DNA from: Candidatus Limnocylindria bacterium
Lineage (GTDB): Bacteria > Chloroflexota > Limnocylindria > P2-11E
Length of the DNA stretch: 62,054 bases
Direction: 5' to 3'
Assembly: GCA_036276035.1 (NCBI GenBank)
Contig: DASUCM010000105.1
Location: forward strand, 1 to 62,054
The notes below the pieces were generated by a model that was not told the DNA's origin, made no database searches, and worked only from the letters and a program-made list of their open reading frames with translations. A program made the translations under genes and the position numbers. Every line of letters begins with the position of its first letter. Position 1 is the stretch's first letter. Of the stretch, positions 789 through 56,919 are shown piece by piece.

Positions 789-862
789 GGGCGATTAGCA
801 CAGCTGGTTAGTGCGCACGGTTCACATCCGTGAGGTCGCTGGTTCGAATCCAGCATCGCCCA
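789..862 (+). tRNA. tRNA-Val (anticodon CAC)
   Basis: Manual cloverleaf: acceptor gggcgat/atcgccc, D arm gcac-agctggtta-gtgc, anticodon arm cacgg-ttCACat-ccgtg, T arm gctgg-ttcgaat-ccagc, discriminator a. Confidence 0.95.
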
Positions 863-5343: not shown

Positions 5344-6426
5344 CTATCGCCTCGACGCGACCGCCTTCGCCTTCGACGGGGGCGCCGCCTTCGATGTGCC
5401 GTTCGAGCGCGCGCTCGCCGGCCTCTTCTCGCCCGCGCCGCAGACGGTCTCGATGATGAGCCGCGTCACGACGTAGGGGTCCATGTTCGCGTTCGGCCGG
5501 CGATCCTCGATGTAGCCCTTCTTGTCGCGCGCGACCTGCCACGGGATGCGGATCGACGCGCCGCGGTCCGAGACGCCGTAGCGGAACTCCTTGTAGGAGC
5601 AGGTCTCGTGGAGCCCGGTGAGGCGCTCCTCGATCGCGTGGCCGTAGTTCTGGATGTGGAGGTCGTGCCGCGTTCCGAGCGCCTGCGCCGCGGCGACGCA
5701 CGCGTCGAACGAGCGGCGCATCTCCTTCGTCGAGAAGTTCGTGTGCGCTCCGGCGCCGTTCCAGTCGCCCTTCACGGGCTTCGGGTAGAGCGTCGCCGAC
5801 ACGCCGAAGTCCTCGGCCACGCGGTAGAGCAGCCAGCGCGCGAGCCAGAGCTGGTCCGCGATGAGCGGCGCCGGCAGCGCGCCGATCTGGAACTCCCACT
5901 GCGCCGGCATGACCTCCGCGTTGATGCCGACGATGCCGAGCCCGGCCTCCATGCAGGCCTCGAGATGCGCCTCGATGACGTGGCGGCCGAAGACCTCGTC
6001 GGCGCCGACGCCGCAGTAGTAGCCGCCCTGCGGCGCCGGGAAGCCGTTGTCCGGCCACCCGAGCGGCTTCGCGCCGTCGAAGAGCGTGTACTCCTGCTCG
6101 ATCCCGAACCAGGTGTCGTCCTTCGCGTACTTCTCGGCCACCGCCGCGCATGCCGCGCGGGTGTTCGTCGGGTGGGGCGTCATGTCGGGCAGGAGGACCT
6201 CGGCCATGACGAGCTTGTTGTCCTCGCCGCGGATCGGATCGGGCACGACGAGCACGGGGCGGAGGACGCAGTCGGAGTTCGATCCGGGGGCCTGCAGGGT
6301 GCTCGAACCGTCGAAGCCCCAGATCGGAGGCTCCTCGCCCTTCGGCACGACCTTCGCCTTCGAGCGCAGCTTCGCGGTCGGCTTCGTCCCGTCGATCCAG
6401 ATGTACTCGGCCCGATACGACTTCAT
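5344..6426 (-). CDS. glnII: glutamine synthetase type II
   Basis: YIWIDG..., FDGSST, GIEQEYTLF, NAEVMPAQWEFQIG and NGAGAHTNFS are classic GSII motifs. There is a Lys/Ala-rich C-terminal tail. A GGGGAGGG ribosome-binding site lies upstream. Confidence 0.93.
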   Translation of the reverse strand: MKSYRAEYIWIDGTKPTAKLRSKAKVVPKGEEPPIWGFDGSSTLQAPGSNSDCVLRPVLVVPDPIRGEDNKLVMAEVLLPDMTPHPTNTRAACAAVAEKYAKDDTWFGIEQEYTLFDGAKPLGWPDNGFPAPQGGYYCGVGADEVFGRHVIEAHLEACMEAGLGIVGINAEVMPAQWEFQIGALPAPLIADQLWLARWLLYRVAEDFGVSATLYPKPVKGDWNGAGAHTNFSTKEMRRSFDACVAAAQALGTRHDLHIQNYGHAIEERLTGLHETCSYKEFRYGVSDRGASIRIPWQVARDKKGYIEDRRPNANMDPYVVTRLIIETVCGAGEKRPASARSNGTSKAAPPSKAKAVASRR

Positions 6427-31884: not shown

Positions 31885-31925
31885 CTTCCCCCACTACTCA
31901 CCACGCGATGGGCAACATACCCCAC
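31879..31925 (-). promoter_or_regulatory. candidate MraZ operator: GTGGGG direct repeats at ~10-nt phasing
   Basis: On the plus strand, ccccac occurs at 31879..31884, 31889..31894 and 31920..31925, with a degenerate caccac at 31899..31904. MraZ is known to bind phased GTGGG-type repeats upstream of its own gene. Confidence 0.5.
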
Positions 31926-31983
31926 TGGGGCGCCCTGTCAAGGCCTTTGTGAGCGCGATCTCAGGGAAAGCGGGCTCGCGCGG

Positions 31984-33315
31984 CTAGACCGCGACGGGAT
32001 CGGGGGCCGGCCAGTCCTCGAGCAGGAGGCTGAGACCGGCGGCCAGCGAGGCGGCGACGGCGCAGGCGAAGAACAGCGCGGACGCGTCGCGCCCCTGGTC
32101 GGCGAGCAGCGACACGAGCAGCGCTCCGACGATCCCGCCCGCATAGCGGCTCGTCGAGAAGATGCCCGAGGCGACGCCCGCCCGCTCCGGCTCGACGGTC
32201 TCGACCGCCGCCGCACGGAGCCCGCCGGCAAGCAGACCGAGTCCCACCCCGCAGGTGAGCAGGCCCGGGATGAGCGCGGCCGGCGCGGCCATGAGGACGA
32301 GCGCGCCGGCCGCGAAGAGCGCGTGTCCCGCCACGCTCGGCCAGCGGCGCCCCGCGCGGTCCGCGAGGCGGCCGCCGACGGGGGCGAGCACGACGCTCGT
32401 CACGAAGAGCGCGGCCAGCGCGGCGCCGCTGGAGAGCGCGGCGGTGCTCGCCTCGGCGGACCGGGCGACGACCACCGGGACGGCGAGCATCGTCGCGTAC
32501 ATGGCGCAGTTGCTCAGCGCGATGGTCCCGTTCGCCGCGGCGAATGTCCTGTCGCGGAAGAGCCGCGGCTGCACGATCGGATCCTCGCGCGCGCGCTCGT
32601 ATCGCACGAGCGCGACCGTGCCGATGACGAGCGCGCCGGTCAGCGCCGCGAGGACGGCCGCCGATGCGCTGCGCACCAGGCTGAGCGTCCACGCCGCACC
32701 GCCAAGGAGGACCGAGAGACCCGCGGCACCGACGACGTCGAAGGGCAGGTAGCGCGGACGCGCATCCCGGGGGATCGCGGCCCAGCCGAGCGCGAGCGCC
32801 GCCGTCACGAGCGGAACGTTCACGGCGAAGGTGGCGCGCCAGTCGAACGCCGCGACGAGCAGGCCACCGAGGACCGGTCCTGCCGCGGCGCCGACGCCGG
32901 TGGCCGCAGCCACGAGCGCGAAGGCGCTGCCCCGGCCGTCGACGACCGCGGTGCGCACGAGCGCCCCCGCGTTCGGCATCAGCACGGCACCCGCGAGCGC
33001 CTGCTGGAGCCGGAACGCGATGAGCCACCCGAGCTCATTCGAGAGCGCCGCGCCGACCGAGGCGGCGGCGAACCAGGCGAGGGCTCCGAGCAGCAGCCGG
33101 CGGCGGCCGAAGGTGTCGCCGAGCTTTCCCCCGACCGGTTGCAGGGCCGCCATCGCGATGAGGTACAGCGTGACGAGCCAGCTCGCGGACACGAGATCGG
33201 TGCCGAGCCCGCTGACGATGTCGGGGAGCGCGATCGCGATCATCGTCGAGTTCAGCGGGATGAGGAGCGATGCGAGGCCGAGCGACGCGACGAGCGGTCG
33301 CGTGCTCCGGCTCAG
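31984..33315 (-). CDS. MFS transporter (drug:H+ antiporter-like, 12-14 TM)
   Basis: TM1 (PLVASLGLASLLIPLNSTMIAIALPDI) and GKLGDTFGRRR (motif A). There is no ATG/GTG/TTG before TM1. CTG 33315 overlaps the upstream TGA (CTGA). Confidence 0.85.
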   Translation of the reverse strand: MSRSTRPLVASLGLASLLIPLNSTMIAIALPDIVSGLGTDLVSASWLVTLYLIAMAALQPVGGKLGDTFGRRRLLLGALAWFAAASVGAALSNELGWLIAFRLQQALAGAVLMPNAGALVRTAVVDGRGSAFALVAAATGVGAAAGPVLGGLLVAAFDWRATFAVNVPLVTAALALGWAAIPRDARPRYLPFDVVGAAGLSVLLGGAAWTLSLVRSASAAVLAALTGALVIGTVALVRYERAREDPIVQPRLFRDRTFAAANGTIALSNCAMYATMLAVPVVVARSAEASTAALSSGAALAALFVTSVVLAPVGGRLADRAGRRWPSVAGHALFAAGALVLMAAPAALIPGLLTCGVGLGLLAGGLRAAAVETVEPERAGVASGIFSTSRYAGGIVGALLVSLLADQGRDASALFFACAVAASLAAGLSLLLEDWPAPDPVAV

Positions 33316-34979
33316 GCCGCGCCCACGATGCGAACGATCCCGGCGTCGCCGTCGACCTCGATCTCCTCGCCATCCCGGATGGACGAGGTGCCGTGGCCGG
33401 TGCCCACGACCGCGGGGATCCCGTACTCGCGCGCGACGATCGCCGAGTGGCTCAGCGCGCCACCGGCGTCGGTGACGAGCGCCCGGATCCGCGCGAAGAG
33501 CGGCGTCCACGGCGCGGCGGTCATCTGCGTCACCAGGATCTCGCCGGCGGCGATGCGCTCGGCCTCCGCGGGCGTGTGCGCCACGCGCGCGATGCCGCGG
33601 GCGCGGCCCGCAGAGCCCGGATGTCCCCGCACGATGCCGTGCTCGCTCGGCGGCGGCGGCGCTCCGGCGAAGCTGAGGGTGGCGCGGTCGACGATGCTCG
33701 TGCCCGCGCCGGGCGAGGGGGCGCCGAGAGACCGCGGGGGATCGATCCGTGCGGCGCGCTCGAGCTCCTGCCGCCGGGCGTCGATCCGACCCCGGAGATC
33801 GGCGGCGGGATGGCCGAGCAGGGCGTCGGCCAGCTCCACCAGCCGCAGGTGGAAGACGTCGTCGACCTCTGGGATCACGCCATCGGCCACGAGGAGCCGC
33901 GCGGCCGCCTGCGCGCGGATGCGCATGAGGAACGATGTCGGGAAGTCGATGTAGAAGTTGTGCGTCTCCTGGATGCGCACAGCGTCCTGCGCCGAGCGGA
34001 GCAGGACCTCGAACTCGTCGCGTACGGGCTGCGGGTACCACCGGATGCGCTCGCGCGCCGCGGAGACCGCGTCGTCCCGCTCGCGTCGCACGGTGGCGAG
34101 CTGCTCTGCCGGGTCGCGCCCGCTCGCGAGCAGCTCCCGGATCTCGCCGAGCACGGCGCCCGGGCGCTCGATCACGCTCGGCTCCGCCGGATCCATGGTG
34201 ATGCCGCGGCGGCCGTACCGCGTGAGGTGCTCGTTGAAGAGCGCGCGGAACGCAGCGGCCTCCGGCGCGGTCTCGATCGCCTGCGCGAGATCCTCCGGGG
34301 CGGCGCTCACGAGCACATCCGCGACCGGTCGGTCAGCCCGGGCCGCGGCGGCGAGGGCCCAGAGCGAGCGCGCGGCCTCGACGGTCTTGGAATCCTCGCC
34401 CTGCAGCAGACGGAGCGCGTCGAGCTGCGTCGCGTCCTCGAACAGCTCGCGGTACAGCTCCGTGAACAGCTCCATCGCCGTCAGCGCCGGAGGCATCACG
34501 AGGAAGTGGATCTCCCAAAGCCGCGCGAACCGCGTCGTGGCGAGCGCGAGCTCCGTCGCGAGCTCCCTGCGGTCGAGCTGCTCGAGCGGCACGGCGTCGA
34601 ACGCTGCGAGGAGCGCCTCGATCTCGGGCAGCATCCCGCTCCAGACCTCGCCCGCGCGGCGCGCGAGCGACACGTAGCGGGCCTCGGCGCGGAGCTTTCG
34701 CGTCGCGAGCTCGGCGGCGGGGAGCTCGAGCGGGCGCGCCCCCCGGTAGAGATAGCCGTTGATCCGCCGCTGGAGCCGCTCGATGGGCCGCTCGAGCGCC
34801 GCGTCGGCCCGCGACATGCCGGTGTCCTGCGAGAGCCGCCGCAGGTCGTGCGTCAGGACCGTGATCGGGCGGGGGTAGTGCAGTCGCGCGAGCGTCCAGG
34901 CGACGGTCGCGTCGCGCGGGTCCTCCCACTCGACCGCGGGGGCTGCCTCCGCCGCGGCGTTCGCGACCGACCCGCTCAC
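33312..34979 (-). CDS. PEP-utilizing enzyme, central plus C-terminal swivel phosphohistidine domain (rifampin phosphotransferase/PpsA-like, C-terminal part)
   Basis: The C-terminus VTDAGGALSHSAIVAREYGIPAVVG is the mobile His domain. GTG 34979 overlaps the upstream TGA (GTGA). Confidence 0.8.
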   Translation of the reverse strand: MSGSVANAAAEAAPAVEWEDPRDATVAWTLARLHYPRPITVLTHDLRRLSQDTGMSRADAALERPIERLQRRINGYLYRGARPLELPAAELATRKLRAEARYVSLARRAGEVWSGMLPEIEALLAAFDAVPLEQLDRRELATELALATTRFARLWEIHFLVMPPALTAMELFTELYRELFEDATQLDALRLLQGEDSKTVEAARSLWALAAAARADRPVADVLVSAAPEDLAQAIETAPEAAAFRALFNEHLTRYGRRGITMDPAEPSVIERPGAVLGEIRELLASGRDPAEQLATVRRERDDAVSAARERIRWYPQPVRDEFEVLLRSAQDAVRIQETHNFYIDFPTSFLMRIRAQAAARLLVADGVIPEVDDVFHLRLVELADALLGHPAADLRGRIDARRQELERAARIDPPRSLGAPSPGAGTSIVDRATLSFAGAPPPPSEHGIVRGHPGSAGRARGIARVAHTPAEAERIAAGEILVTQMTAAPWTPLFARIRALVTDAGGALSHSAIVAREYGIPAVVGTGHGTSSIRDGEEIEVDGDAGIVRIVGAA

Positions 34980-35932
34980 CTCGCGTGCCCGCCGTCGCCC
35001 GCCGTCGTCGTGACGGGACGGCACTGCAGCAGGTAGAGCGTGCCTGCGCGGAACGCGCACTCGACGTCGACCGGCGCGCCGGTCTCGTCCTCGAGCGCGA
35101 GCGCGAGCTCCGCGGCCGCGCGCACGGCGGCGTCGTCGAGCGCGAGGCGCTCGCGGAGGATGCGCGGGACGCGGACCTCGCGCGTGCCGTCCGCCGTTCG
35201 CACCGTCATGCGCTCCTTCGCCCCGACGGTCCGCGACCGGATCACGAGCCGGTCGCGCCGGACGGTGTACACGTCCGGCGTCGCGGTCCCGCCGACGATG
35301 CTCTCGCCGAGACCCCAGCTCGCGTTGATGACGACGTCGTCCGATCCGGTCCGTGGGTCCACGCTGAAGACGACCGCGGCGACGTCCGCCGGGACGAGCT
35401 GCTGCACGAGCACCGCGATCGATCCGGCCGCGTCGAGGCCCTGGGCCCTCCGGTAGGCGAGCGCGCGCTCGGAGCGCACGGACGCGCGGCAGCGCGCGAT
35501 CGCGTCGGCCACCGCGTCCGCTCCCGTCAGGTTGAGGTAGGTGTCGTGCTGTCCGGCGAACGACGCGCCTGCGCCGTCCTCATCCACGGCCGACGAGCGC
35601 ACGGCCACGGCGGGCTCATCCTCTCCCACCCGCCGTCCGAGCTCGCGATACGCCTCGGCGATGGCGGACCGGAGCCCGCTGTCGTCGGGAGCAGCGGTCG
35701 CCGTCAGGCAGAACCCGGCCGGGACGCGGTGGCCGGCGGCGAGCCGGCTGAGGCTCGCGGCCTTGCCGCCGGCGACGCGGGGATCGTCGGCGCCGGGCGC
35801 ACCGAGCCACAGGATGTCGATGACGCGCGAGTCTAGGTGGGACGCACCCGGTCGACGACGTCCTCGAGCACCCGCGCGGCGCGCTCGCGCATGCCCGGCT
35901 CGCGCTGCTCGGGCAGCGGGCTGCCCCACCAC
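34976..35932 (-). CDS. PEP/pyruvate-binding (PPDK_N, ATP-grasp) domain protein, the N-terminal part of a split rifampin phosphotransferase/PpsA-like enzyme
   Basis: VAGGKAASLSRL, AVRSSAVDEDGAGASFAGQHDTYLN and SWGLGESIVGG. GC3 shows coding only begins after the fabH stop (35833). The real start is therefore probably near-cognate (ATC 35821/35815 or CTG 35812) rather than GTG 35932. Confidence 0.8.
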   Translation of the reverse strand: MVGQPAARAARAGHARARRAGARGRRRPGASHLDSRVIDILWLGAPGADDPRVAGGKAASLSRLAAGHRVPAGFCLTATAAPDDSGLRSAIAEAYRELGRRVGEDEPAVAVRSSAVDEDGAGASFAGQHDTYLNLTGADAVADAIARCRASVRSERALAYRRAQGLDAAGSIAVLVQQLVPADVAAVVFSVDPRTGSDDVVINASWGLGESIVGGTATPDVYTVRRDRLVIRSRTVGAKERMTVRTADGTREVRVPRILRERLALDDAAVRAAAELALALEDETGAPVDVECAFRAGTLYLLQCRPVTTTAGDGGHAR

Positions 35933-39348: not shown

Positions 39349-39365
39349 GCGCCGACTCTAGACGG

Positions 39366-40259
39366 CTACCCGCTCCGCTTCAGGCGGCCGGTCCGCTTCG
39401 CGTACCGCTCGGCCGAGATGAACAGCCGGAGGCCGATGGGGATCGAGAGCGCGCCGATGAGCAGCGCGGGCCAGACGAGCGGCCACAGCGTGACGAGGTC
39501 GGCCCCGTCGAGGAGCGCCTGGCGCATCCCTTCGATGACGTACGTGGCCGGCGAGATGACCGAGAGCGCCTGGAGCCAGCCGGGAAGGACCGTCGTCGGG
39601 TAGTAGACGCCCGACACGAGGAGCACGACGGCCTGGACGATGTAGGCCATCTGGAGCCCCTTCTCGGTCCAGATGAGCGGGAAGCAGGCCGAGGCGATGC
39701 CGAGACCGATGAACGCCATCGTGCCGACGCCGAGCAGCGCGACCGCCGAGAGGGCGTTCGCGCGGGAGAGGTCCACGTCGATGAAGAGCACGACCGCGAA
39801 GAGCACGAGGATGCTGATGACCGCTGCGCGGAGGATCGTGCCGATCGACATGCCGATGAGGTGCGTGAGCCGCGGCACCGGCGCCATGAACGTGTACTCG
39901 ATGGTGCCCTCCCACTTCTCCCAGGCGATGATCTCGGCGATGTCCTCGAAGACGATGCCGAGGAAGCGCCAGGCGATCGTGCCGACGAGCAGGTAGAGGA
40001 CGAAGCGCGACGTCGTCGCCGGATCCACCTGCTCGCCGGTGATCGCCGGTGCCGCGAGACCGATGTACGCGACGGAGAGGGACGTCGTGATCGAGTAGAT
40101 GATCCAGACGACCTCCCAGAGCCAGTAGCGCTTCATCAGCGCGACCGTCCGCTCGACGAACGCGTACGCGAGCTTCGGCTGCTGCGTGAACGTCGAGAGC
40201 CTTTGACTGGGGCTCGGACCGGGCCGGCGAAGCCGGGCCGGTCCGGACGTCTTGATCAC
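39366..40259 (-). CDS. ABC-2 type transporter permease
   Basis: Six hydrophobic segments. The GTGA overlap with the upstream ATPase stop is present. Confidence 0.85.
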   Translation of the reverse strand: MIKTSGPARLRRPGPSPSQRLSTFTQQPKLAYAFVERTVALMKRYWLWEVVWIIYSITTSLSVAYIGLAAPAITGEQVDPATTSRFVLYLLVGTIAWRFLGIVFEDIAEIIAWEKWEGTIEYTFMAPVPRLTHLIGMSIGTILRAAVISILVLFAVVLFIDVDLSRANALSAVALLGVGTMAFIGLGIASACFPLIWTEKGLQMAYIVQAVVLLVSGVYYPTTVLPGWLQALSVISPATYVIEGMRQALLDGADLVTLWPLVWPALLIGALSIPIGLRLFISAERYAKRTGRLKRSG

Positions 40260-41068
40260 TCTGCGTCATCCACGATGCTGCGGCCCGTCACCGTCATGAA
40301 GACCGACTCGAGGTCGCCGCCGAACCGCTCGCGCAGCTCGTCCGACGTGCCCTCGGCCACCAGGCGCCCGCCGTGGATGATGCCGATGCGGTCCGCGAGC
40401 CGCTCCGCCTCGTCGAGGTCGTGCGTGGTCAGGAGGATGCTCGCGTCGTGCTCGTCCCGAAGGTCGCGCACGAACGTCTGCACCTCCCGCTTGCTCCGGA
40501 TGTCGAGCCCGGTCGTCGGCTCGTCGAGCAGCAGGAGCATGGGCGTCGAGAGGAACGCGCGCGCGATAGACACCTTCTGCTGCATGCCGCGCGACAGCTT
40601 CTCGAGCGGCTCGTCGAAGCGTGCCGAGGGGATCCCGAGGCGGCGGAGGATCGTCGATGCGGTCGCGCGCGACGCTCTCGCGTCGACGCCGTACAACCGT
40701 CCCGCGTAGACGAGGTTCTCCATCGCCGAGAGCTTCTTGAAGAAGGACGCCTCGACCGAGACGCGGTTGATGAGCCGCTTCACCGTGAGCTCCTCGAGCC
40801 CGACGTCGTGGCCGAAGACGCGGACCTCGCCCGCGTCGGCCTCGAGCAGCGTCGAGAAGAGCCGGATGAGCGTCGACTTGCCGGAGCCGTTCGCGCCGAG
40901 CAGCCCGTAGATCTCGCCCCGGCGTACCGAGAGCGAGACGTCGTCGACGGCACGGATCTGCTTGCCGTTCCGCGAGCCGCGGAACGACTTGCTGACCCGC
41001 TGGGCGAGCAGGGCGGACCCGGCCACCCGGGCCGGGGATCGTGGCGCGTCGCGTGTCGCGAGAGCCAT
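40256..41068 (-). CDS. ABC transporter ATP-binding protein
   Basis: Walker A GANGSGKST, signature LSRGMQQKV and Walker B LLLLDEPT. In-frame ATG 41068 has AGGGAA upstream. The track start at 41146 lies inside the terminator hairpin. Confidence 0.9.
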   Translation of the reverse strand: MALATRDAPRSPARVAGSALLAQRVSKSFRGSRNGKQIRAVDDVSLSVRRGEIYGLLGANGSGKSTLIRLFSTLLEADAGEVRVFGHDVGLEELTVKRLINRVSVEASFFKKLSAMENLVYAGRLYGVDARASRATASTILRRLGIPSARFDEPLEKLSRGMQQKVSIARAFLSTPMLLLLDEPTTGLDIRSKREVQTFVRDLRDEHDASILLTTHDLDEAERLADRIGIIHGGRLVAEGTSDELRERFGGDLESVFMTVTGRSIVDDAE

Positions 41069-41114
41069 CGCTCGTTCCCTTTCGAGTCCTGTGCCCACGT
41101 CGCCGTCATCGGCG

Positions 41115-41150
41115 AAACAAAAAGACCGTGGGCCCTTGCTGCCCACGGTC
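41115..41150 (-). terminator. canonical intrinsic terminator (gaccgtgggc-agcaagg-gcccacggtc followed by TTTTTGTTT)
   Basis: Perfect 10-bp stem (41124..41133 with 41141..41150), 7-nt loop and a U tract at 41123..41115 on the minus strand, only ~50 nt upstream of the ABC start codon. Confidence 0.75.
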
Positions 41151-41300
41151 CGGAGGTGCTCGCTGAGCCTGGCTTAGGCCCTAATGGCTCCGGAAAGTGG
41201 GCAGGCTGATCCGAGGATCGACCTCGGTGCGCGGTGCGAAGAGGGTCAACACCAGCTGCGCCACTTCCTTTCGTGATCTCGTCCGCGCGCGTGCGGGACC
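41115..41300 (-). ncRNA. candidate structured 5' leader / riboswitch-like element ahead of the ABC-2 exporter operon
   Basis: Long-range helix aagtggcgcagctgg (41266..41252) with cagcctgcccactt (41210..41195). An internal hairpin ccgagg-tcgat-cctcgg is present. CUGCCCAC can alternatively pair with GUGGGCAG of the terminator 5' arm. Confidence 0.45.
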
Positions 41301-41305
41301 GGCGC

Positions 41306-41335
41306 ACGCTAGCAGGCGGACGCTCGCTCCGTCAA
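41306..41335 (-). promoter_or_regulatory. candidate promoter for the leader (TTGACG-18 nt-TAGCGT)
   Basis: Hexamers read on the minus strand just downstream of the Cys-rich ORF stop. Confidence 0.3.
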
Positions 41336-41363
41336 TGGTGAAGAGATCGCGGCGGCCGGGCCG

Positions 41364-41513
41364 CTAGCAGCAGCACGGTCCGCCGCGCGCGCAGCCCTCG
41401 CAGCAGTAGTCCCGGCCGCCCACGATCACGCGCTCCGCACGGATCGTGATGCGGCAGTTCGCGCAGCGGAGCGGCGGCTGCGCCGCGCCCATCTCGCCGA
41501 CCTGCGTCGTCAT
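41364..41513 (-). CDS. 49-aa Cys-rich protein, TRASH/YHS-like metal-binding pattern
   Basis: MTTQVGEMGAAQPPLRCANCRITIRAERVIVGGRDYCCEGCARGGPCCC. 47 of 49 codons end in G/C and there are 8 Cys. It is not in the ORF track (too short). The listed 41332..41568 ORF in another frame looks spurious. Confidence 0.6.
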   Translation of the reverse strand: MTTQVGEMGAAQPPLRCANCRITIRAERVIVGGRDYCCEGCARGGPCCC

Positions 41514-41572: not shown

Positions 41573-42268
41573 TCACTCCGGCGCCGGGAACTGATACCCC
41601 ACCCCCCGCACGGTGAGGATGTAGCGCGGGGACTGCGGATCGGCCTCGAGCTTGTTCCGCAGCCGGCCCACGTACACCTTCAGGTAGTGCGACTCGTTCC
41701 GGTACTCGGCGCCCCAGACCTTCGCGAGGAGCGTCTCGTGCGGCATCACGCGGCCGGCGTTCGTGGCGAGGTGGTACAGGAGGTTGTACTCGATCGGCGT
41801 CAGCGCGACGTGGCGGCCGCGCACGCTCACGCGCCGCTGTGCGTAGTCGATCTGGAGATCGCCGTGCGTGAGCACGTTCGCCCGGCGCTGGGCGGTCGCC
41901 GAACGGTAGCGCCGGAGCACGGCCTCGATGCGGGCCATGAGCTCCTTGTGGCTGAACGGCTTCGTGATGTAGTCGTCCGCGCCGAGCTCCAGCCCGCGCA
42001 CCTTGTCAGCCTCGAGGTCGCGCGCGGTGATGACGATGATCGGCAGCTCCATCCCCGACGACCGCAGCTCCTCGAGGATGCTGAAGCCGTCGCGTCCCGG
42101 CATCGCGAGGTCGAGCAGGAGCAGGTCGGGCCGCTCGTCCTCCACCCGCGCGATCGCCTCGAGCGCGTTCGTGCACTCCACCACCACGTGGTCGGGCCGG
42201 TGGAACGTGATGCCCATCGCCGTCAGGGCGGCGACATCGGGCTCGTCGTCGACGATGAGGATCTTCAT
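41573..42268 (-). CDS. OmpR/KdpE-like response regulator
   Basis: MKILIVDDEPD, DLLLLDLAMPGRDG and DDYITKPF, with a winged helix (LTVRGVGYQF). Confidence 0.92.
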   Translation of the reverse strand: MKILIVDDEPDVAALTAMGITFHRPDHVVVECTNALEAIARVEDERPDLLLLDLAMPGRDGFSILEELRSSGMELPIIVITARDLEADKVRGLELGADDYITKPFSHKELMARIEAVLRRYRSATAQRRANVLTHGDLQIDYAQRRVSVRGRHVALTPIEYNLLYHLATNAGRVMPHETLLAKVWGAEYRNESHYLKVYVGRLRNKLEADPQSPRYILTVRGVGYQFPAPE

Positions 42269-44046
42269 CCGACCGCTCCGGCGGCGGCCGGGACGGGCTC
42301 GTGCGGAAGCGCCACGACGAAGCGCGCGCCGCGCGGGCCATCCTCGACCCGGATGCGCCCGCCGTGCAGGCCGACGAGGTCCTTCGCGATCGCGAGCCCG
42401 AGGCCCGTGCCGCCGGCGACATCGCGGTCGCGCCGCAGGCGGACGAACTTGTCGAACACACGCTCGCGCTCGTCAGCCGGGATCCCGGGGCCCTCGTCGG
42501 CGACGGCGAGCTCGACCACGTCCCCGGCGCGCGCCGCGCTGAGCTCGATCGCCGCACCGTCCGGCGAGTAGCGGATCGCGTTCGACACGAGGTTCGCGAG
42601 CACCTGCAGCATGCGGCGCCGGTCGACGTAGACGGGTGGCGCCGAGGATGGCGCGATCACGATGCGCTGCCCGCGCGCGCCGGCGAGCGCCTCGTGCGCC
42701 GCCGCCGTCTCGGCGAGCAGCGCGTCGCACGGGATGAACTCGCGGTCGAGCTCGACCTTCGCCTCCTGCAGCTGCGCGATCTCGAGCAGCTCGCCGACGC
42801 TCCTGGTCAGGCGCTGGGCGTGACGTTCGGCCTGCGCGATGAGCGTCCGCGCCTGGTCCGTCATCGATCCGGCCTGGCGGCCAAGGAGCTCGAGCGCGCC
42901 GGAGACGACCGTGAGCGGCGTGCGGAGCTCGTGGCTGACCGCGGCGAGGAACTCGTCCTTCAGGCGGTCGATCTCGCGGAGCGCCTGGGCCTCGCTCGCC
43001 TGCGCGAAGAGCCGCTGGTTCTCGAGGGTCTGCGCGATGAGCGCGGCGACGGCGCCGGAGAGGCGGAGGTCGTCGTCGGTGAACCGGTCGGGCAGCGCGC
43101 GAGAGAGGGTGAACACCGCGATCGCGCGCCCGCCGACGCGGAGCGGCACGAGGATGACCGAGCGGGCGGGCTCGCCGGGCCGCGGCTCGTAGCGCGGGTC
43201 CTCCAGGACGTTCGGCACGAGGATCGGGCGCTCCTCGGCGAGCGCCGCCGCGACGAGGCCGTGCCCGAGCGGAGCCCGCGGCGGGAGAACGTCGTCATCG
43301 CCCGACGCGAGGCGGTGGAGCACCCGGTACTCATCGCGCGCCTCGTCCGCGACGAAGACCGTCGCGCGGTCGAACAGGAGGACCGCCCGCGCCGCATGCA
43401 GGACACGCGGGATGACCTCGTCCGGCGCCGCGACGGTGGCGACGACCTTGGTCGCGACGGCGAGCGCGGCGTCCTCGGCGATGCGGCGCTCGAGCCGGGC
43501 GATGAGGTCCTCGCGCTCGGTGCGGAGCTGGCGCGAGTCGCGCATGACGCGGTCCACGAGCACGGCGGTGAGCGCGTAGACGGACAGCGTGAAGAGGACG
43601 CGCTCCGGCTCGAAGGCGTAGCCGAAGGCCCGGTCGCGAAAGATGACGGTCGCCGTGTAGACCGTGCCGAGCGAAAGGGAGGCGGCGAGGGTGCCGCCCG
43701 TGCCGAAGCGGAACGCGCCGGTCGTGATGACGAGGGGCCCGAGCATGAAGGTGGTCCAGCCCGGATCGGCCGAGAAGAGCACCATCGCCGCGGCCAGCGC
43801 CGCGATGTCGCCCGCGAACGCCGCCCGCGCGACCGTCGCGTGCGCCGCGCGCGAGGCGGCGCGCCGCGAGGCTGCGAGCGCCGCGACGTTATAGAGGACG
43901 ATCCCCGCACCGAGGGCGTAGACGCCCTGCACCGAGAGCGTGGGGAACAGGGGGCCGAGGAGCAGCGCGATCGCCGCGGCGCCCCAGCGCACGCGACCGA
44001 TGGCTCGCTCGACCCGCTGGGCCTCGAGCAGGAGACGGTCGGTCAT
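42265..44046 (-). CDS. sensor histidine kinase with membrane-spanning N-terminus and GAF domain
   Basis: In-frame ATG 44046 (MTDRLLLE), ~5 TM helices, a GAF-like segment, the H-box VSHELRTPLT, and GTGLGLAIAKDLV. The ATGA overlap with the response regulator start is present. Confidence 0.9.
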   Translation of the reverse strand: MTDRLLLEAQRVERAIGRVRWGAAAIALLLGPLFPTLSVQGVYALGAGIVLYNVAALAASRRAASRAAHATVARAAFAGDIAALAAAMVLFSADPGWTTFMLGPLVITTGAFRFGTGGTLAASLSLGTVYTATVIFRDRAFGYAFEPERVLFTLSVYALTAVLVDRVMRDSRQLRTEREDLIARLERRIAEDAALAVATKVVATVAAPDEVIPRVLHAARAVLLFDRATVFVADEARDEYRVLHRLASGDDDVLPPRAPLGHGLVAAALAEERPILVPNVLEDPRYEPRPGEPARSVILVPLRVGGRAIAVFTLSRALPDRFTDDDLRLSGAVAALIAQTLENQRLFAQASEAQALREIDRLKDEFLAAVSHELRTPLTVVSGALELLGRQAGSMTDQARTLIAQAERHAQRLTRSVGELLEIAQLQEAKVELDREFIPCDALLAETAAAHEALAGARGQRIVIAPSSAPPVYVDRRRMLQVLANLVSNAIRYSPDGAAIELSAARAGDVVELAVADEGPGIPADERERVFDKFVRLRRDRDVAGGTGLGLAIAKDLVGLHGGRIRVEDGPRGARFVVALPHEPVPAAAGAVG

Positions 44047-44100
44047 GCGGTGGGCAGAGCCTAGCGGGCCGCGGTGACAGGGCGCATGCGCCCGTTGCCC

Positions 44101-44132
44101 GAATGTTGACGTTCCGTTGACCGGCCGTTGAG
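44101..44132 (+). promoter_or_regulatory. triple direct repeat GAAT-GTTGAC-N5-GTTGAC-N5-GTTGAG (11-nt period), candidate response-regulator operator
   Basis: Repeats at 44105, 44116 and 44127, lying 39-66 nt upstream of the S8 peptidase ATG in the region divergent from the kinase gene. A 14-bp perfect palindrome gggcgcatgcgccc lies at 44081..44094. Confidence 0.5.
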
Positions 44133-44170
44133 CGCGGCAGCGCCATCCTCCCGCCACCACGAACGGGGGT

Positions 44171-45940
44171 ATGGAAATGCAGCCACAAAAGGCAGCCGCG
44201 CTGGTCAGCTCGCTCCTTCTCGCGCTCGCGGTCTCGCTCGCGCCGCTCGGCGGGCAGGCCGCCGCCCAGGCGAGGATCGATCCGACGCTCCAGGCCGCCA
44301 TCCAGCAGGGCGGCACGGTCGCCGCCATCGCGATGTTCGACCATCCGGTCACCGCGATCGACAAGGCACGCCTCCAGGCGGCCGGCGCGACGACGGTCGT
44401 GCCGTACACGCGCTGGCCGTGGGCCGGCGTGATCGGTCCGGCAGGCGCGATCCAGGCGATCGCCGGGTTCGCCGACGTCCGCGAGATGCAGTTCGCGCCG
44501 GACATCGACTTCTACCTGCACGAGAGCGTGAAGCTCATCGGCGCGGACCGCGCGTGGGCGCCGAAGTCGGCTGGCGGGCTCGGCACGACGGGCGCCGGCA
44601 TCGGCGTCGCGATCGTCGACTCCGGGATCAACGCCACGCACCCTGATCTCGCGAAGCGCGTCGTGAAGAACCTGAAGTTCGTCGCCGACTACGTCGTCGA
44701 GACGAACGACTCCGACACGACGAGCGGACACGGCACGCACGTGGCGGGTACCGTCGCGGGCGACGGCACCGCCTCCAAGACGGGGACCTCGGCCGACCTC
44801 GGCGGCTACGGCTACTACACCGGCGTCGCCCCGGGGGCGGACCTCATCGGCCTCGGCGTCGGCGACGGCCGCAACATCATCTGGTCGCTCTCCGCGTTCA
44901 ACTGGATCGCCGACAACCACCGCGCGTACAACATCCGCGTCGTCTCCAACTCCTGGGGCGCGGCGGGCGGAGGGCCGTACAACCCGTCCTCGTCGATCAG
45001 CGTCGCGGCGGAGTCGCTCGCGGACCTCGGGATCACCGTTGTCTTCGCCGCCGGGAACGACGGCGTGAACTCCGGCACGACCTCGAGCGCGAACAACACG
45101 CTCAGCTCCTACTGCGGCGGGCGCGTCATCTGCGTCGCCTCCGGGACGAAGGACCGGACCCTCTCGAGCTTCTCGTCGACCGGCGCGCCGGACAACAGCC
45201 GGACGCCGACGCTCACGGCGCCCGGCACGCGCATCTGCGCGACGCGGAACCCTCACGGCATCACGACCGGCTCCCAGGCCGACGCGGGCCTGTTCGCGGA
45301 CACGCCGGCCGTGCGGCCCGAGTGGCTGCCCTACTACACCTGCATCAGCGGGACGAGCATGGCCACGCCGCACGTGTCCGCGACCGTCGCACTCATGCTC
45401 CAGCTGAACCCGGCGCTCACGCCGGTCGACATCGCGCGCGTGCTCGGCGCGACCGCGAGCGTCATGCCCGGCTATCAGCCGTACCAGGTCGGCGCGGGCT
45501 ACCTCGACGCCTACGCCGCCGCCGCGATGGCAAAGAAGACGCGCAGCACGGGCACCTGCAGGACGAAGAGCGGGAAGCAGCTCGCGACCGTCATCACGAG
45601 CGAGAGCTACAGCGGCACCATCGGGGTAGGCGTCGCCGACGCCGGCGCGGCCGCCCACGACCTGTACCCGTTCACCGTCGGGACGAAGGCGATCCGCGTG
45701 ACCGTGACCATCAACTGGACGACGCCCCAGGATCTGGACCTGCGCGTCCTCTACCCGGACGGGACGCAGGCCTCGTCATCCGGCAACTTCCCGGGCGTCA
45801 CCACGGAGACCGCCACGAAGAGCGACGGCGACTGCAGCGGCTCTCTGCCGGCGGGCCAGTGGACCGCCGACGCGGTCGGCTACGCGACCGTGGCGGAGAG
45901 CTACACCGGCATCATCGAGGTGGAGTACCTCGCGCGCTGA
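44171..45940 (+). CDS. secreted S8 family (subtilisin-like) serine peptidase with C-terminal beta domain
   Basis: Signal peptide and catalytic triad motifs VAIVDSGI, GHGTHVAGTVAG and SGTSMATPHVS. Confidence 0.92.
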   Translation: MEMQPQKAAALVSSLLLALAVSLAPLGGQAAAQARIDPTLQAAIQQGGTVAAIAMFDHPVTAIDKARLQAAGATTVVPYTRWPWAGVIGPAGAIQAIAGFADVREMQFAPDIDFYLHESVKLIGADRAWAPKSAGGLGTTGAGIGVAIVDSGINATHPDLAKRVVKNLKFVADYVVETNDSDTTSGHGTHVAGTVAGDGTASKTGTSADLGGYGYYTGVAPGADLIGLGVGDGRNIIWSLSAFNWIADNHRAYNIRVVSNSWGAAGGGPYNPSSSISVAAESLADLGITVVFAAGNDGVNSGTTSSANNTLSSYCGGRVICVASGTKDRTLSSFSSTGAPDNSRTPTLTAPGTRICATRNPHGITTGSQADAGLFADTPAVRPEWLPYYTCISGTSMATPHVSATVALMLQLNPALTPVDIARVLGATASVMPGYQPYQVGAGYLDAYAAAAMAKKTRSTGTCRTKSGKQLATVITSESYSGTIGVGVADAGAAAHDLYPFTVGTKAIRVTVTINWTTPQDLDLRVLYPDGTQASSSGNFPGVTTETATKSDGDCSGSLPAGQWTADAVGYATVAESYTGIIEVEYLAR

Positions 45941-54395: not shown

Positions 54396-54703
54396 TAGGC
54401 CGAGCAGGCCTCTAAGCCGGGTTCTGTCCCGCCCCTCCTCTCGGAGGTGCGGTGACGGTCATCCATCTCGGGATCGGAGGTCACCCTCCGCCTCTAGCGA
54501 TCGACCCGGGGCGGTGCGGGCGACACCGTGGCCCCTGCGTGATCTTGCTCCAGGAAGCGCTTGCCCGTTTCACCCCGCTTGCGCGGGTTCGTCACTGTGG
54601 CGCTGGCCTCGCCTCACGGCGGGCGGGCGTTACCCGCTTCCCTGCCCTGCGGAGCCCGGACTTTCCTCGGCTTTCGCCGCGACCGTCCGGCCTGCTCGGC
54701 ACG
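54396..54703 (-). ncRNA. rnpB: RNase P RNA (bacterial type A)
   Basis: On the minus strand: GAGGAAAGUCCGGGCUCC (54668..54651), ACAGAACCCGGCUUA (54427..54413), GGUAACGCC and AGAUGGAUGA motifs. The P1 helix pairs ccgagcaggcc (54699..54689) with ggcctgctcgg (54410..54400). The ends are approximate. Confidence 0.9.
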
Positions 54704-56845: not shown

Positions 56846-56919
56846 TGGGCCTGCCTGGATTCGAACCAGGGACCAGCGAATTATGAGTTCGCCGCTCTTG
56901 ACCACTGAGCTACAGGCCC
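56846..56919 (-). tRNA. tRNA with CAT anticodon (elongator Met, or Ile2 if lysidinylated)
   Basis: Manual cloverleaf: GGGCCTG/CAGGCCC acceptor, GCTC-AGTGGTCAA-GAGC, GCGAA-CTCATAA-TTCGC, CCTGG-TTCGAAT-CCAGG, discriminator A. The anticodon stem lacks the initiator GGG/CCC. Confidence 0.95.

Follow-up and report, generated by a model that had tools for sequence, protein, structure and literature searches.

In Bacillus subtilis, bmrB-bmrCD encodes a multidrug ABC exporter under ribosome-mediated transcriptional attenuation, and translation of the bmrB leader is required for its induction by ribosome-targeting antibiotics (PMC4191407). Leaders that combine an upstream open reading frame (uORF) with a terminator also precede other antibiotic-responsive genes, including vmlR, msrD, and mycobacterial whiB7 (PMC9226507, PMC10314930, PMC10274678). 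Here, we describe a leader of ∼270 nucleotides (nt) in a 62,054-nt stretch of DNA from Candidatus Limnocylindria bacterium (Chloroflexota; GenBank assembly GCA_036276035.1, contig DASUCM010000105.1, positions 1 to 62,054; hereafter, the window). The leader follows a two-component operon and precedes an operon for an ABC-2-type exporter, and all its coordinates are those of the minus strand. We think it probable that this element gates the exporter genes as a ribosome-mediated (leader-peptide) transcription attenuator; it looks like an undescribed, widespread member of this class in soil Chloroflexota. A literature search, which covered few subscription journals, found neither this leader nor any uORF-terminator leader reported from Chloroflexota or for an ABC-2 pump. 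In soil, Candidatus Limnocylindria and its relatives among the Chloroflexota are abundant but uncultured, and to our knowledge almost nothing has been learned about their gene regulation.

The locus resembles bmrB-bmrCD in having a short leader ORF, here predicted to be translated, alternative stem-loops that include an intrinsic terminator, and an ABC exporter reached by read-through. On the other hand, the two are unrelated in sequence. Whereas BmrCD is a heterodimer of type IV (ABCB-like), the pump here is an ABC-2/DrrA-like ATPase with a separate permease. The bmrB terminator is located within the coding sequence, but the terminator hairpin here begins 30 nt after the end of the uORF, which contains the antiterminator strand only. 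Unlike in bmrB, a helix that sequesters the Shine-Dalgarno (SD) sequence is part of the switch, and while bmrB is known to be induced by antibiotics, such induction would be a prediction for the present element. The vmlR, msrD, and whiB7 leaders likewise consist of a uORF and an intrinsic terminator, sense ribosome stalling or translation stress, and switch on a resistance or stress gene. They differ in controlling ABC-F ribosome-protection factors or a transcription factor, and their uORFs and structures are unrelated in sequence to this leader.

The sequence parts of the leader, their conservation, the coding signature of the uORF, and the mutually exclusive pairings with their covariation were all established computationally. 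At the center of the element is a switch strand within the last 8 codons of the uORF, which has two alternative partners: the SD-side arm, in a helix that we call P1, or 41155..41139, in the antiterminator. Thus, its octamer CUGCCCAC (41204..41197) can pair with GUGGCGCAG or with GUGGGCAG (41146..41139), to which it is fully complementary. The initial annotation, made from the letters of the window, had recognized this competition, and the alternative pairing with the terminator arm proved longer than first described, extending through UCCGGAG (41194..41188) with CUCCGGA (41155..41149); the extended antiterminator is part of the minimum free energy (MFE) structure of the whole leader. A long helix closing the upstream part had been proposed as well. 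One of its strands, AAGUGGCGCAGCUGG, is located as described (41266..41252), while the other, CAGCCUGCCCACUU, starts at 41208 rather than 41210 (41208..41195), and the helix, P1, has 10 base pairs (bp) with one bulged C rather than 14 to 15 bp: AAGUGG-[C]-GCAG (41266..41256) pairs with CUGC-CCACUU. The enclosed hairpin CCGAGG-ucgau-CCUCGG, here termed P2, exists as proposed. Both competing pairings beat shuffled controls. Region 2, the part of the switch strand upstream of its P3 arm, reaches -29.4 kcal/mol with the terminator arm (shuffles, -12.3 ± 2.8) and -24.3 kcal/mol with the SD segment (shuffles, -14.4 ± 3.3), and the z score of the whole-leader fold is -2.56. As expected of an attenuator, the leader has an antiterminator that excludes the terminator, with one strand positioned where a translating ribosome would govern its availability.

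Homologous leaders are found directly 5' of the orthologous ATPase in 20 genome loci (ATPase identity, 67 to 78%) and, as matches to a pattern of three conserved blocks, in at least 120 metagenome loci. Among the matches listed, all 108 metagenome loci with ≥300 nt of downstream sequence have the ATPase orthologue downstream of the leader on the same strand. A genome-wide search with the pattern CCTGCCCAC..CCGTGGG..CCACGG was set aside, as it returned mostly chance matches in other high-GC phyla, besides a few extra Chloroflexota loci. In the 20 genome orthologues, which were found via protein homology, the block GAAAGGAAGUGG is nearly invariant. We take this block to be an extended SD sequence, as it matches the complement of the typical bacterial 16S rRNA 3' end (the window holds no 16S gene).

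A short ORF with a ribosome-binding site is kept open across these relatives. Among 125 unique leaders, the uORF is open in every one and has 22 to 27 codons, with a start codon 8 to 16 nt after the SD sequence. The stop codon changes only to other stops (TAG in 120 leaders, TAA in 3, and TGA in 2) and, in 123 leaders, follows the first base of CUGCCCAC by 21 nt. The start-to-switch distance takes six values between 48 and 60 nt, and these are multiples of three in 110 of the 111 leaders with the canonical GTG. The encoded peptides are diverse, with 90 different sequences, and the entropy is flat over codon positions (0.61/0.64/0.61 and 0.70/0.79/0.97), suggesting that the frame and its translation matter rather than, for the most part, the peptide. 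Such a pattern is the signature of a regulatory leader ORF and difficult to square with a noncoding aptamer.

This coding signature bears on the riboswitch logic that the initial annotation had offered side by side with attenuation. If the element were a metabolite riboswitch, P1 and P2 would form an aptamer, a ligand would stabilize P1 and hence the terminator, and the ORF would be incidental. The P1/antiterminator/terminator architecture is that of many "off" riboswitches, P2 covaries, and the leader as a whole folds better than its shuffles. However, no Rfam 15 family matches the leader at its gathering score in a search of the whole window, and a search of 40950..41450 at E ≤ 10 returned no known family, only subthreshold matches that are due to chance or to the terminator. 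The best of these, the SdsR/RyeB small RNA (sRNA) family (RF00111), scores 22 bits against a cutoff of 38, and its alignment rests on the terminator hairpin. Neither an Rfam aptamer model nor an invariant unpaired core was found in the P1-enclosed region, whose sequence varies and whose length (48 to 60 nt) changes almost only in steps of 3, and a noncoding aptamer requires neither a start codon at SD spacing nor a stop codon that mutates only to stops. We consider a riboswitch improbable. The competition between terminator and antiterminator stands, and because the uORF is conserved with its SD sequence, start, and fixed stop, the logic is that of leader-peptide attenuation.

The pairings themselves are kept in orthologous leaders. 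Both are far more stable than shuffled controls in 20 of 20 genome orthologues, and P1 is re-registered by compensating changes in locus L001 (GAGCGG with CCGCCUC), in L011 and L017 (GGCAGGG with CCCUGCC), and in L012, L013, and L016 (shifted bulges). P2 occurs in orthologues as CGCGGG/CCCGCG, CCGGGG/CCCCGG, and CGCAGG/CCUGCG. RNAalifold applied to a plain MAFFT alignment recovered the terminator only, as this alignment misplaced the competing helices and the variable interior of the ORF. In a covariance-model alignment of 100 leaders (87 distinct), for which a hand-drawn "off" structure was supplied so that the counts lean towards it, this structure pairs 87.4% of cells, compared with 31 to 47% when the partners are slid. 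By helix, 92.8% of cells are paired in P1, 72% in P2 (three pairs changed on both sides), and 69% in P3. As covariation evidence, the genome loci found by protein homology are less biased than the pattern-selected metagenome loci.

The arms of the terminator, GACCGUGGGC (41150..41141) and GCCCACGGUC (41133..41124), flank the loop AGCAAGG; the terminator scan that found them detected no other strong intrinsic terminator than 41150..41115 on the minus strand within 28 to 45 kb. On the plain alignment, 9 pairs are recovered, 2 with compensatory changes, and in the covariance-model alignment 99.2% of the terminator cells are paired across the 87 distinct sequences. As first annotated, this is a canonical 10-bp terminator close to the ATPase start: the U-tract ends 46 nt before the ATG (41068). 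In several orthologues this spacer is only ∼25 nt, which leaves no space for a promoter between terminator and ATPase, so that the exporter genes need read-through, a dependence that had been proposed from the window alone. An intrinsic terminator thus separates the leader ORF from the regulated gene, with no promoter in between. The promoter candidate TTGACG-18 nt-TAGCGT proposed upstream of the leader is present in the window, with a predicted transcription start at ∼41299, and TTGACN-17/18-TAnnnT occurs 31 to 33 nt 5' of the SD sequence in 109 of 118 unique orthologous upstream regions; a strict scan for the Escherichia coli-type consensus did not call it. Between promoter and SD sequence, a 5'-terminal stem-loop, P0, has counterparts of other sequence in orthologues, read by eye as CACGCC..GCGUGG, CCCCC..GGGGG, and CUCGCGC..GCGCGAG.

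With its own conserved promoter and strong terminator, the leader might be a stand-alone sRNA of ∼185 nt, or the hairpin might merely terminate the upstream two-component operon, with no regulatory link to the exporter in either case. Attenuator-derived sRNAs are known (PMC6614838), and in the window this is the only terminator after the response regulator and the Cys-rich ORF. Nevertheless, we give these possibilities very little credence: the leader stands directly 5' of the ATPase on the same strand in all 108 loci mentioned above, the upstream gene differs between orthologues, and with spacers of ∼25 nt the exporter must be transcribed through the terminator.

Weak covariance-model matches were also observed directly 5' of more distant ATPase homologues, from other Chloroflexota, including Thermomicrobiales, and from one metagenome-assembled genome (MAG) of Symbiobacteriaceae. 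These loci share the layout of SD sequence, uORF (26 to 45 codons), hairpin, and terminator. The antiterminator and terminator sequences differ among subfamilies and match within each: CUGCCCAC with the terminator 5' arm GUGGGCAG in subfamily A, GAUCUGuGCCC with GGGCCAGAUC in B, CUGCCU-CGGU with ACCG-c-GGGCAG in C, GGCUCAUGGUC with GACCGUGAGCC in D1, and CAGCCUGU with ACAGGCUG in E. Pairing of the uORF 3' end with its own terminator arm beats shuffles in 34 of 34 loci (mean z = -2.06), and the own-pair duplex beats swapped partners by about 3 to 11 kcal/mol in seven of eight types and by 0.9 kcal/mol in the remaining one, D2. The antiterminator strand begins ∼21 nt ahead of the stop codon in A, B, C, and D1, and the terminator hairpin starts 21 to 37 nt 3' of the uORF stop. 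In the Symbiobacteriaceae MAG (L074), the uORF/antiterminator/terminator layout, with CAGCCUGU and ACAGGCUG, is found upstream of position 6001, where an ABC ATPase homologue is located. The homologues from Rubrobacter and other Actinomycetota that we inspected are without the leader layout.

A model that joins these parts would run as follows. Transcription would begin at the conserved promoter, near 41299, and the strong SD sequence would drive translation of the 23-codon uORF (41252..41181). The switch strand, CUGCCCACuuUCCGGAG, would then have three fates. Paired back with the SD/start region in P1, it would hide the SD sequence and leave the terminator free to form. Paired with the 5' arm of the terminator, it would allow polymerase to read through into the ATPase and permease genes. 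Covered by a ribosome at the end of the uORF, it would be unavailable, the terminator would form, and transcription would end at ∼41115; when the A site holds the stop codon, the ribosome is expected to shield the P3 5' arm together with most of the switch strand, without reaching the terminator. Complete translation of the uORF would lead to termination, failure to initiate would tend to give P1 and termination, and delay or trapping of the ribosome at the start codon or close to it would favor the antiterminator and exporter expression. By analogy with bmrB-bmrCD and related leaders, the signal may be translation stress, and exporter expression should then rise under such stress, e.g., in the presence of ribosome-targeting compounds.

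The model follows the four-segment logic of the trp/his/phe-type attenuators of Proteobacteria (1:2 and 3:4 versus 2:3). As in these, the stop codon of the leader ORF is placed so that a terminating ribosome masks segment 2, and termination is expected with no or complete translation and read-through with a ribosome held upstream. Unlike in the trp/his/phe type, there is no run of regulatory codons for a single amino acid, segment 1 is the SD/start region rather than a stretch inside the ORF, and an exporter rather than a biosynthetic pathway is controlled.

The switch was modeled by masked folding at the decision point, with transcripts from 40 loci truncated at the end of the terminator 5' arm. 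A ribosome mask on the SD sequence and start codon gave the antiterminator in 32 of 40 loci, and a mask at the stop gave it in 0 of 40, an outcome that is partly built in, as the mask covers the strand. Full-length masked folding discriminates weakly, and the truncated transcripts are more informative. When the full-length leader of the window was folded, the terminator persisted with no mask and with masks for a ribosome at codon 8 or at the stop, and was lost only when the ribosome was placed on the start.

Several observations weigh against attenuation as modeled here. From the computed features we infer uORF translation, conditional termination, switch direction, and the physiological signal. 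Without a mask, the truncated transcripts split between the antiterminator (23/40) and P1 (18/40), and full-length equilibrium folding favors the terminator in most loci whatever the mask, so that neither the default state nor the switch direction is settled. The pattern by which the metagenome loci were picked fixes the three conserved blocks, and this set therefore cannot show covariation inside them. P1 is not significant outside subfamily A. In L011 and L017, the spacing from SD sequence to AUG is long, 15 to 16 nt (16 to 17 nt in another numbering). In two loci, L002 (5757..5923) and L019 (5654..5837), the conserved switch block falls in another frame than in all others, in L002 through a compensated pair of indels; this suggests that RNA sequence matters more than amino acids there. 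Lastly, the uORFs hold no run of repeated regulatory codons of the kind found in amino acid-sensing (trp/his/leu-type) leaders, and no specific signal can be read from them for this reason. Their sole recurrent codon cluster, Arg-Arg, abuts the switch strand, and a stall there would mask that strand.

A related idea, which would refine attenuation without contradicting it, is that the product of the uORF is a regulatory nascent peptide, acting by arrest or as a sensor. Its conserved C-terminal (G)R-S-[L/V]-P, followed by 3 to 5 residues and the stop, would make the ribosome slow down or stall while on the antiterminator strand, and the dwell time would set the frequency of termination, with a small molecule such as an exporter substrate possibly acting as modulator. 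Three subfamilies share R-S-[LV]-P despite differing Arg and Ser codons (CGC AGC CUG CCC in A, AGA UCU GUG CCC in B, and AGG AGU CUG CCU in C), which hints at selection on the peptide; the ending bears a loose resemblance to arrest motifs. The distance from motif to stop is fixed within each subfamily, and the N termini in L002 and L018 agree (MSNSYILRQ and MSNGFVIRQ), yet their Ser codons are AGT and TCG. Ligand-sensing leader peptides and RAPP-type arrest motifs provide precedents (PMC10951233, PMC7897499); SecM, ApdA, ApdP, and TnaC are likewise short peptides with an Arg-x-x-Pro-like C-terminal motif near the end of an upstream regulatory ORF (PMC10951233, PMC7897499). In contrast to RAPP-type peptides, the motif here is neither RAPP nor RGPP, the leader is upstream of an ABC-2 exporter and not of Sec or YidC genes, and the motif nucleotides are the antiterminator strand itself, so that any function at the peptide level is putative. 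Moreover, even the third codon positions of the motif block are invariant within a subfamily, and this block coincides exactly with the strand pairing with the terminator arm; RNA pairing alone explains most of its conservation. The frame changes in L002 and L019, which keep the nucleotides, also argue against the peptide, as do the absence of the motif from subfamily D and the flat entropy of the remaining peptide. We regard a regulatory nascent peptide as unlikely. There is a small chance that (G)R-S-[L/V]-P...stop is a new nascent-peptide sensor that holds the ribosome on the antiterminator strand and is tuned by a small molecule, plausibly the exporter substrate. If so, a ligand-sensing leader similar to those of TnaC, SpeFL, or Erm would act on an intrinsic terminator and would be widespread in uncultured soil Chloroflexota, with at least one further occurrence in a Symbiobacteriaceae genome.

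With attenuation as the favored reading, the leader offers a concrete, testable regulatory element with more than 100 natural sequence variants, tied to a widely conserved, predicted ABC-2 exporter. Should read-through respond to translation inhibitors, this would mark the pump as an inducible system for resistance or detoxification in soil communities, and antibiotic sensing based on uORFs would extend to a new phylum and a new class of transporter. The spacing of 21 nt from antiterminator start to stop codon across subfamilies of different sequence is a natural experiment on the footprint of the terminating ribosome in attenuation. Adding the element to Rfam-type libraries could improve the annotation of Chloroflexota metagenomes. 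The features of the leader and of the adjacent genes are collected in the table.

Table. Leader elements and neighboring genes in the window
Feature	Coordinates	Strand	Details
Promoter	41306..41335	-	-35 TTGACG 41335..41330, 18-nt spacer, -10 TAGCGT 41311..41306
5'-terminal stem-loop P0	41281..41300	-	GUCCCGC..GCGGAC
Shine-Dalgarno block	41262..41273	-	GAAAGGAAGUGG; 3' half doubles as P1 5' arm
uORF	41181..41252	-	GTG start 41252, 23 codons (MLTLFAPRTEVDPRISLPTFRSH), TAG stop 41183..41181
Hairpin P2 inside uORF	41211..41227	-	CCGAGG (41227..41222), loop ucgau, CCUCGG (41216..41211)
Switch strand (region 2 and P3 5' arm)	41188..41204	-	CUGCCCAC-uu-UCCGGAG
Switch-strand partner	41139..41155	-	CUCCGGA-cc-GUGGGCAG; overlaps terminator 5' arm
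Intrinsic terminator	41115..41150	-	10-bp stem, 7-nt loop, U-tract UUUUUGUUU 41123..41115
Post-terminator hairpin	41091..41114	-	CGCCGAUGACGGCG, then ACGUGGGCAC
ABC ATPase, DrrA-like ABC-2-type nucleotide-binding protein	40256..41068	-	PF00005
ABC-2 permease	39366..40259	-	PF01061 ABC2_membrane, E = 3.8e-13; start overlaps ATPase stop
Cys-rich ORF	41364..41513	-	49 codons; CxxC...CCxxC...CCC; directly after response regulator
OmpR-type regulator	41573..42268	-	Upstream of leader
GAF histidine kinase	42265..44505	-	Upstream of leader

The best NCBIfam match of the ATPase is TIGR01188 (drrA), with a score below the cutoff of that family, and the nearest PDB sequences are ABCA-type nucleotide-binding domains. 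By its homologues, the ATPase assigns the window to Chloroflexota, close to Candidatus Limnocylindria. For the permease, the mechanically called ORF 39358..40269 (minus strand) was discarded, as it is a wrong, Arg/His-rich frame with no family match; the true permease is the overlapping frame of 297 codons, 39366..40259 (minus strand). Around these two genes, the neighborhood varies. A two-component system is the upstream neighbor in five loci only, with another gene in most, and the prolyl oligopeptidase and FabH genes downstream are syntenic only within Limnocylindria, at variable distance. The initial annotation had placed an array of eight genes under the leader; only the ATPase and the ABC-2 permease proved to be constant partners, and the prolyl oligopeptidase and later genes reflect lineage-specific synteny. 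Since the upstream and further-downstream neighbors vary, we conclude that the functional unit consists of promoter, leader, ATPase, and permease.

A small peptide gene, a terminator, and an ABC-2 transporter are also a common bacteriocin layout. The small ORF could accordingly encode a secreted or bioactive peptide (bacteriocin-like, or similar to ribosomally synthesized and post-translationally modified peptides), with the pump as its exporter or immunity factor and a leaky, constitutive terminator that keeps the ratio of peptide to pump high. The prolyl oligopeptidase gene found downstream in the window and in many Limnocylindria loci would fit this scenario. We dropped it as part of a peptide-maturation module, however, because its linkage is variable and restricted to that lineage, and no modifying enzyme is consistently linked to the leader. 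The peptide sequence is barely constrained, as its diversity and flat entropy attest, and both the P1/antiterminator/terminator competition and the fixed 21-nt stop spacing would be purposeless. A secreted peptide is thus very improbable.

Some further observations concern the surroundings of the leader. The post-terminator hairpin is also present in L001, L002, L009, L011, L017, and L018 and absent from the orthologues with short spacers. The segment 3' of it, ACGUGGGCAC, is a further copy of GUGGGC, complementary to the 3' arm of the terminator and to the switch strand; this hairpin may form a second layer acting on read-through transcripts. The Cys-rich ORF has tblastn matches at the same position in L001 and L009 and a weak match to NF041023 (PP0621 family; E = 3e-4, below cutoff), and it may encode a small metal-binding protein.

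Downstream of the exporter, the only consensus-grade sigma-70-like promoter within 28 to 45 kb (31914..31941, minus strand; TTGACA-16-TATGTT) sits upstream of genes for MraW methyltransferase and a penicillin-binding protein (cell division), which argues that the genes following the exporter do not form one long operon into the cell-division cluster. At 33312..35932 (minus strand), a PPDK_N (ATP-grasp) domain and a PEP-utilizers mobile domain are encoded by two ORFs (34976..35932 and 33312..35060) that overlap and differ in frame. These domains usually occur in one protein of ∼870 amino acids, similar to phosphoenolpyruvate (PEP) synthase or phosphotransferase, and the split could reflect a frameshift, a sequencing error, or two genes. 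Elsewhere in the window, Rfam identifies a bacterial class A RNase P RNA (54397..54698, minus strand) and tRNA genes at 56846..56919 (minus strand) and 789..862 (plus strand).

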